Program-made: the position numbers and the translations under genes
NCBI RefSeq assembly: GCF_003334335.1
Contig: NZ_QOWQ01000035.1
Direction: 5' to 3' (one strand)
Length of the DNA stretch: 47,404 bases
Source of the DNA: Escherichia coli
Lineage (GTDB): Bacteria; Pseudomonadota; Gammaproteobacteria; Enterobacterales; Enterobacteriaceae
Shown: one piece after another, positions 47,040-47,303 of the stretch
How the letters are laid out: the number at the start of each line of letters is the position of its first letter
Position numbering within the stretch: the stretch's first letter is position 1
The notes under the pieces: model-generated
Databases searched by the model: none
What the model was told of the DNA's origin: nothing
What the model saw: only the letters and a program-made list of their open reading frames with translations

Positions 47040-47303
47040 TAGGCCTGATAAGACGCGGCAAGCGTCGCATCAGGCATTGATGTCGGATGCGGCGTAAACG
47101 CCTTATCCGACCTACAAAATCACGCTAAATCAGGCTATTGCGCTGTCTGGCGTAGGCCTGATAAGACGCGTTAAGCGTCGCATCAGGCGTTGATGTCGGA
47201 TGCGGCATAAACGCCTTATCCGACCTACAAAATCACGCTAAATCAGGCTATTGCGCTGTCTGGCGTAGGCCTGATAAGACGCGGCAAGCGTCGCATCAGG
47301 CAT
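47040..47303. repeat. BIME cluster: about 2.3 tandem copies of a 113-bp unit containing two REP palindromes
   Basis: Unit taggcctgataagacgcg...cgcatcaggc / gatgtcggatgcggc..ccttatccgacctac repeats at 47040, 47153, 47266. Confidence 0.9.

Follow-up and report, generated by a model that had tools for sequence, protein, structure and literature searches.

The repeats that lie directly downstream of yjcO in the window (the whole stretch of 47,404 nucleotides of Escherichia coli DNA analysed here, contig NZ_QOWQ01000035.1) very probably constitute the E. coli gltP-yjcO BIME, a BIME-2-type array that is present here as a five-REP allele, is copy-polymorphic and would act locally within a 3'-UTR. 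Its setting is the yjcO-gltP spacer, on which the two genes converge. Descriptions of REP/BIME arrays, of their y/z2 make-up and of their polymorphism in copy number go back to the 1990s, which leaves the present array little value as a discovery. The element is itself already known and was used experimentally earlier, since Ton-Hoang et al. 2012 employed it as a substrate of TnpA_REP. Part of the MG1655 gltP-yjcO BIME (oligo B319) was cleaved in vitro at four sites in the linker, and TnpA_REP was able to recombine BIMEs (PMC3333891). The REP is defined as an imperfect palindrome of 30-40 nt with a conserved GTAG tetranucleotide 5' to its foot; BIME-2 elements combine y and z2 REPs in multiple tandem copies, the number of which at one locus varies between strains, and both BIME-2 and atypical BIMEs have linkers of variable length and sequence (PMC3333891). 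Length polymorphism of BIME-2 has also been reported (PMC1187871).

The repeat itself is clear. Tandem Repeats Finder (TRF) places it in the window at 47040-47304, with a period of 113, 2.3 copies, 95% matches, 0% indels and a score of 502, and the first two units are identical at 109 of 113 positions. The window contains two exact copies of the linker quoted in the sequence-only reading (47116-47152 and 47229-47265), whereas 0 occurrences are expected from 100 shuffles, even with 3 mismatches permitted. The array is extragenic: no part of it reaches back to the yjcO stop codon (47037) or leaves the spacer towards gltP, and the ORF list holds no ORF of at least 30 aa inside it, leaving a protein-coding reading unsupported. 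The sequence-only reading had described a 113-bp tandem unit in about 2.3 copies downstream of yjcO, and both the unit and the position (yjcO ORF 46348-47037, + strand, with the array directly after it) are borne out. It had also treated the repeat as a REP-pair array separate from that between yjdM and yjdN, with a unit length and linker of its own; this too holds, TRF giving the yjdM-yjdN array (17389-17668) a 100-bp unit against 113 bp here. It was mistaken in letting the array reach the window edge and perhaps continue beyond it. Its last base is at 47302-47304, and the 100 bases from there to the end of the window do not belong to the repeat; they comprise 25 unique bases and, from 47328, the left end of an IS186.

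Table 1. Features at the right-hand end of the window, from yjcO to the insertion sequence (window coordinates)
Feature	Coordinates	Strand	Description and basis
yjcO CDS	46348..47037	+	TAA stop 47035-47037; ORF list
z2 REP no. 1	47039..47076	+	foot ATAG, not GTAG; 36/38 identical to REP325 z2; regex dissection and alignment
Inner linker TTGA, 4 nt	47077..47080		joins the non-GTAG ends of z2 and y; 7-nt deletion relative to the 11-nt REP325 linker in the Rfam alignment
y REP no. 1	47081..47115	-	GTAG on minus strand; compensatory C-G to T-A stem change relative to REP325 y
Outer linker copy 1, 36 nt	47116..47151		AAAATCACGCTAAATCAGGCTATTGCGCTGTCTGGC; locus-specific; own small hairpin in RNA predictions
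z2 REP no. 2	47152..47189	+	GTAG; loop variant GTTAAG
Inner linker TTGA copy 2	47190..47193
y REP no. 2	47194..47228	-	GTAG on minus strand; loop variant GCATAAAC
Outer linker copy 2	47229..47264		identical to copy 1
z2 REP no. 3, array end	47265..47302	+	GTAG; loop GGCAAG, as in no. 1
Unique spacer and 5' half of non-REP hairpin	47303..47327		comparison with ML35 and MG1655
IS186/IS421 left end	47328..47404	+	inverted repeat CATAAGCGCTAACTTAAGGGTTG at 47328-47350; window ends inside the element; IS421-family matches
Rfam RF02564 (naRNA4) match no. 1	47042..47112	-	79 bits; y no. 1 + z2 no. 1, gltP sense
Rfam RF02564 (naRNA4) match no. 2	47155..47225	-	71.4 bits; y no. 2 + z2 no. 2

The array is built from five palindromes of 35-38 nt in the order z2(+) y(-) z2(+) y(-) z2(+), as listed in Table 1. 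On the + strand, each unit consists of a 38-nt z2 REP with its GTAG foot, the 4-nt inner linker TTGA, an inverted 35-nt y REP that ends in CTAC, and a 36-nt outer linker. The GTAG foot is found in four of the five REPs, the exception being the ATAG of the first z2, which begins 2 nt past the yjcO TAA. Two full unit variants are present in the window, type A (loops GGCAAG and GCGTAAAC) and type B (GTTAAG and GCATAAAC), followed by a terminal A-type z2 (a). The Rfam alignment gives a two-hairpin structure with a compensatory pair, and its structure line shows internal mismatches in the REP stems. When set against the REPs of REP325, the z2 REPs have one extra loop base, and the y REPs carry a compensatory pair in the stem, T-A in place of C-G. 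The intact ML35 allele is predicted to fold far more stably than shuffled sequence, with z = -8.2 in the yjcO sense and -9.9 in the gltP sense, and the predicted fold contains one hairpin per REP plus a small hairpin in the outer linker. Both copies of the outer linker (47116-47151 and 47229-47264) contain ATCAGGC, which resembles the 3' arm of z2, and CATCAGGC is found in the variants of B2 strains; the outer linker may be a relic half-REP made by cleavage and rejoining.

The identification follows from these parts. All five palindromes are extragenic, lie within 35-38 nt, match the y and z2 types and share 94-95% identity with the corresponding REPs of REP325, while units within the one locus are 95-97% identical. 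The REP types, whose classification the sequence-only reading had proposed, prove to be y and z2 in alternating orientation, which is the BIME-2 composition of Ton-Hoang et al., and the tandem copies, variable in number between strains, likewise agree with that class. BIME-2 elements are also characterised by their linkers, with a short linker S between REP and iREP and one of the motifs s, l or r beside each pair. The label is applied here on composition and tandem architecture and not on linker class, and the name 'atypical BIME' may yet prove apt. A search that needed roughly at least 86% identity found the outer linker at no other E. coli locus. In ML35 its matches number two, the same as the linkers at the gltP-yjcO locus itself, and the outer linker is therefore regarded as locus-specific.

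Several related systems share some of this architecture. BIME-1 elements (also RIB/RIP) resemble the array in being extragenic inverted REP pairs with one y-type member, but BIME-1 combines y with z1 in a single copy (PMC3333891) and has a long L linker with an IHF site, whereas the gltP-yjcO array has a z2 partner, a 4-nt inner linker without room for an IHF site, and tandem repeats. BIME-1 is ruled out on these grounds. The REPIN doublets of other bacteria are thought to be mobilised or amplified by a domesticated Y1 transposase of the IS200/IS605-like type. The REPIN/RAYT (TnpA_REP) systems of Pseudomonas and other bacteria are also composed of inverted REP pairs (PMC2817692), but their doublets are dispersed, whereas here a tandem array with a locus-specific linker is bound to one locus. 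No RAYT gene lies adjacent to the array within the window.

The closest relative within the window is the yjdM-yjdN array, REP325, whose REP types have been called Y and Z2 (PMC4550694). The two arrays share the y and z2 types, the tandem order of y, short linker and z2, and the same Rfam model, and their REPs are about 94% identical. They differ in that REP325 has the opposite orientation in the window and lies inside an operon, whereas the gltP-yjcO array lies between convergent genes. The linkers are unrelated, with inner linkers of 4 nt at gltP-yjcO against 11 nt at yjdM-yjdN, and outer linkers of 36 against 17 nt at 28-42% identity. Nor do the copy numbers move together: the REPs at yjdM-yjdN and gltP-yjcO number 12 and 1 in WP3-S18, 12 and 9 in C439, and 6 and 5 in the window. 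The earlier proposal that the two BIME clusters expanded independently is thus supported by the unrelated linkers, the restriction of the outer linker to its locus, and the uncoupled copy numbers. At 17389-17668 the REP325 allele of the window comprises 2.8 units with 6 REPs, against 12 REPs in C439, in WP3-S18 and, according to the literature, in MG1655; either both arrays of the window genome are short alleles or both were collapsed in assembly. Two more inverted REP pairs occur in the window, at 20141-20227 and 25476-25554, and these are not tandem.

The copy number recorded here could be under-assembled or collapsed if the contig derives from short reads, since the window ends inside an insertion sequence, as short-read contigs do. 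An identical 2.3-copy allele is present in a complete genome, that of strain ML35. The MG1655 locus shares its position, flanking genes, 113-bp unit and linkers with the window, but carries 5.3 copies (11 REPs) as against 2.3 copies (5 REPs), has no IS186 in the adjacent hairpin and, in its reference sequence, has a first y REP that is 2 nt short where that of the window is intact. The units of MG1655 follow the pattern A' B B A B a, and the window's A, B and terminal a correspond to units 4-6 of that pattern; those of C439 follow A B A B a.

Variation of this kind is widespread. We compared a panel of 12 E. coli strains, taking the spacer as the distance between the yjcO and gltP stop codons and counting copies directly in the loci; counts of places per genome from the searches underestimate copies, as K-12 has 5 exact linkers and K-12 derivatives show 4 places. 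Across the panel the spacer ranges from 77 to 1057 bp, with 1 to about 18 REPs and 0.3 to about 8.7 copies. RM9387 (77 bp) and WP3-S18 (78 bp) have a single REP, APEC O1 (147 bp) and O157:H7 (177 bp) have degenerate arrays, and NCTC9064 (190 bp) has 3 REPs. The ML35 allele, identical to that of the window, has a spacer of 304 bp and 5 REPs. ST131 and d1-7 (both 488 bp), C439 (530 bp, 9 REPs), MG1655 (641 bp, 11 REPs), SCU-204 (713 bp) and Nissle 1917 (1057 bp, about 18 REPs) are longer. A REP directly after the yjcO stop codon, intact or truncated, is kept in all 12 alleles, and decayed and truncated REP copies are seen in B2 strains and O157. In the B2-type alleles the first z2 has an internal deletion (GGTAGGCGCAGCAAACGTCGCATCAGGC), and what closes the array is a degenerate linker and not a z2; in strains with such alleles, two ABC-transporter ATP-binding genes precede yjcO, in place of fdhF.

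A broader view came from 59 chromosomes, sampled at even spacing from a ranking of all 5,426 complete genomes. The spacer holds a single REP in 25 of these, measures 147-191 bp in 8 and 304 bp in 5, and contains longer or divergent arrays in the remaining 21; across the sample the spans change in steps of about 113 bp. At least one full outer linker is present in 2643 of the 5426 complete genomes. The multi-copy state is not required, because about half of E. coli genomes have a single REP or a degenerate remnant. When each GTDB species was represented by one genome, the outer linker also turned up in Escherichia sp. E1V33, with 5 units, and in E. whittamii, with 2 units, in both cases in the orthologous spacer between yjcO and gltP, and the unit therefore predates E. 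coli. Some differences are concerted throughout a lineage, such as the CTACATCAGG linkers of B2 strains and the ATTGATG inner junctions of E1V33. Such concerted differences and the changes by whole units fit unequal recombination or slippage, by which the array would grow and shrink through exchange between near-identical units, and TnpA_REP, the REP-associated transposase that cuts the gltP-yjcO linker in vitro, may contribute to the gain and loss of units. The locus thus behaves as a variable-number tandem repeat that separates E. coli lineages. One further match is a 240-bp contig (NZ_JAAIYA010000177.1, 1-240, coverage 0.53) in an assembly of the myxobacterium Pyxidicoccus caerfyrddinensis. 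This contig consists wholly of B-type units, such as occur in K-12, and contamination with E. coli is almost certainly its origin.

The gltP side of the spacer is altered in the window. In intact genomes 8 nt separate a hairpin, ATTGCCGGG TGGATAT CCCCGGCAAT, from the stop codon of gltP, and the IS186 sequence from 47328 takes the place that the loop and 3' arm of this hairpin occupy in ML35 and MG1655. The 80 bases from 47325 to 47404 match IS186A of MG1655 with zero mismatches, and 47318-47327 (GTGGATATCC) corresponds to the target sequence that is duplicated by IS186 insertion, as seen in SCU-104 and TB354. IS186 prefers targets with a G-run and a C-run and generates target duplications of 10-11 bp. 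At the three sites that were compared, namely gltP, sufD (GGGGGAGATATCCCC) and the K-12 IS186A site (GGGGATCACTCCCC), the targets all have the form GGG(G)-N6/7-CCCC. A complete 1339-bp IS186 at the same base, in the same orientation and with the duplication GTGGATATCC is found in only 2 of the 5,426 complete genomes, SCU-104 and TB354, and no IS186 in the opposite orientation was found at this hairpin among the complete genomes. The arrays of SCU-104 and TB354 have 4.3 and 3.3 copies, with a terminal z2 that differs from that of the window, and the site shared by the three genomes reflects either a hot spot or common ancestry. In SCU-104 and TB354 gltP comes after the IS186. The insertion into the gltP-side hairpin parts gltP from the array by 1.3 kb in the window genome.

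By analogy with published work on other REPs, we propose that the REP hairpins may act locally as part of a 3'-UTR when transcription of yjcO (and of gltP, where no IS intervenes) runs into them. In that role they would bar the way to 3'-to-5' exonucleases and dampen readthrough from either convergent gene into the other. A scan for terminators and promoters found neither intrinsic-terminator-like sites nor promoters in the intact spacer, which leaves the REP hairpins and the gltP-proximal hairpin as the evident candidates for 3'-end structures of the two genes. The precedent is REP325, which has been described as a partially Rho-dependent attenuator and stabiliser of upstream mRNA; in the same study convergent gene pairs with REPs had higher expression, with large variance between REPs, dependence on context and no general effect on mRNA half-life (bioRxiv 10.64898/2026.03.23.713779). 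Ribosomes stall at REPs that lie no more than 15 nt from a stop codon, and translation is lowered (Liang et al. 2015, cited through PMC12306157). The first z2 lies within this distance of the yjcO stop codon. The first hairpin may impede ribosomes in their termination phase and so reduce YjcO output, since it begins 2-4 nt after that codon. A more ambitious version of this role seems unlikely: the number of REPs, from 1 to about 18, could form a heritable, fast-mutating dial for YjcO translation and for the stability and readthrough of the yjcO and gltP mRNAs, with recurrent IS186 insertion providing a second means of uncoupling gltP from the REP 3'-UTR. If that were true, the strains would offer at this locus a ready-made series of alleles in which the tuning of convergent genes by REP number could be followed. 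The allelic series and the IS186-interrupted alleles are handy in any case for testing REPs as 3'-UTR regulators.

Other roles can be considered for the same sequence. The array may simply be selfish or neutral DNA, a REP doublet amplified by TnpA_REP and/or unequal recombination that drifts with no gain to the host beyond that of a single REP; this is possible, if still improbable as the whole account. The very wide range of alleles (1 to about 18 REPs, with decayed or truncated copies in B2 and O157) agrees with it, as do the roughly half of genomes without any full outer linker and the in vitro cleavage of the gltP-yjcO linker by TnpA_REP, an enzyme that can recombine BIMEs (PMC3333891). 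The retention of at least one REP, intact or truncated, right after the yjcO stop in 12 of 12 panel alleles argues the other way, and so do the survival of the unit in the orthologous spacer of two further species of Escherichia and the compensatory change, which maintains the stems while the loops vary. Neutral drift is compatible with a local 3'-UTR role for the first REP, and differs from it only on the extra copies. A role for the array mainly as DNA, as a strong site of gyrase binding and cleavage that eases positive supercoiling between the convergent genes, is less probable again. Its position between such genes suits this idea, and BIME-2 elements are enriched in sites of gyrase cleavage, y REPs being cut more than z2, but only a subset of BIME-2 is cleaved and the loci named are sucC-sucB and tldD-yhdP (PMC6379681). 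Neither gltP nor yjcO is mentioned in the accessible part of the Topo-seq supplementary text of that study (PMC6379681).

The y-z2 pairs might also be genes for nucleoid-associated small RNAs of the naRNA4 kind, binding HU and condensing the chromosome as proposed for REP325, but we consider this very improbable. A true naRNA4 would be expressed as a discrete, HU-binding RNA of about 77 nt. Both pairs exceed the gathering score of RF02564 on the minus strand (79 and 71.4 against 59.5 bits), and homologues of REP325 could share its role, as was suggested in mBio in 2015 (PMC4550694). The family is nevertheless generic for y-z2-like pairs, as it matches REP325 three times and also a single BIME in the window at 20144. 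It therefore serves as a detector of such REP pairs, the match to the single BIME being the telling one. RF02564 was built from REP325, and relative to that model the linker between the two hairpins lacks 7 nt in the present array. The matching strand is the gltP sense, and IS186 intervenes between the array and gltP, from which minus-strand transcription would be driven. Finally, a 2026 preprint from the same laboratories found no measurable nucleoid compaction by REP325/naRNA4, which acts locally (10.64898/2026.03.23.713779). A local 3'-UTR element remains the reading that we prefer. The single BIME just mentioned (20144-20224, minus strand) scores 69.1 bits, also above the naRNA4 gathering score.

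The near identity of the units has a practical consequence for MG1655. The first y REP of the reference sequence (about 4,296,380) is 2 nt short, reading GCGGTAAAC as against GCGGCGTAAAC, and '+GC gltP/yjcO' has been listed in one study as a difference between its own MG1655 ancestor and the reference (PMC8611074). In many evolved populations a C->T change at 4,296,060 has been called at 16-28% (PMC11510482), and gltP-yjcO variants at 10-33% that were absent from clones have been proposed as possibly advantageous (PMC12956098). Position 4,296,060 is an A/G difference between units 1 and 4 of the array. When error-free reads simulated from the reference with GC added were mapped back to the reference with bowtie2-like penalties, the apparent fraction of T at this position fell with read length, from 0.33 (75 nt) through 0.27 (100 nt) and 0.20 (150 nt) to 0 (250 nt). 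The recurrent subclonal calls most likely represent mis-mapping between array units and not adaptive mutations, because the 2-nt-short y REP and the near-identical units 1 and 4 reproduce them in the simulation. Short reads cannot be placed within the array, so that false 'mutations' arise when MG1655 is resequenced, and assemblies may collapse or break there.

Two further structured elements were matched at the Rfam gathering level elsewhere in the window. One is the enterobacterial sRNA STnc630 (11561-11726, minus strand, 181.8 bits). The other is a SECIS element (44519-44573, plus strand, 87.1 bits) just upstream of the ORF fragment at 44575, a position that is as expected for the selenocysteine codon of fdhF.
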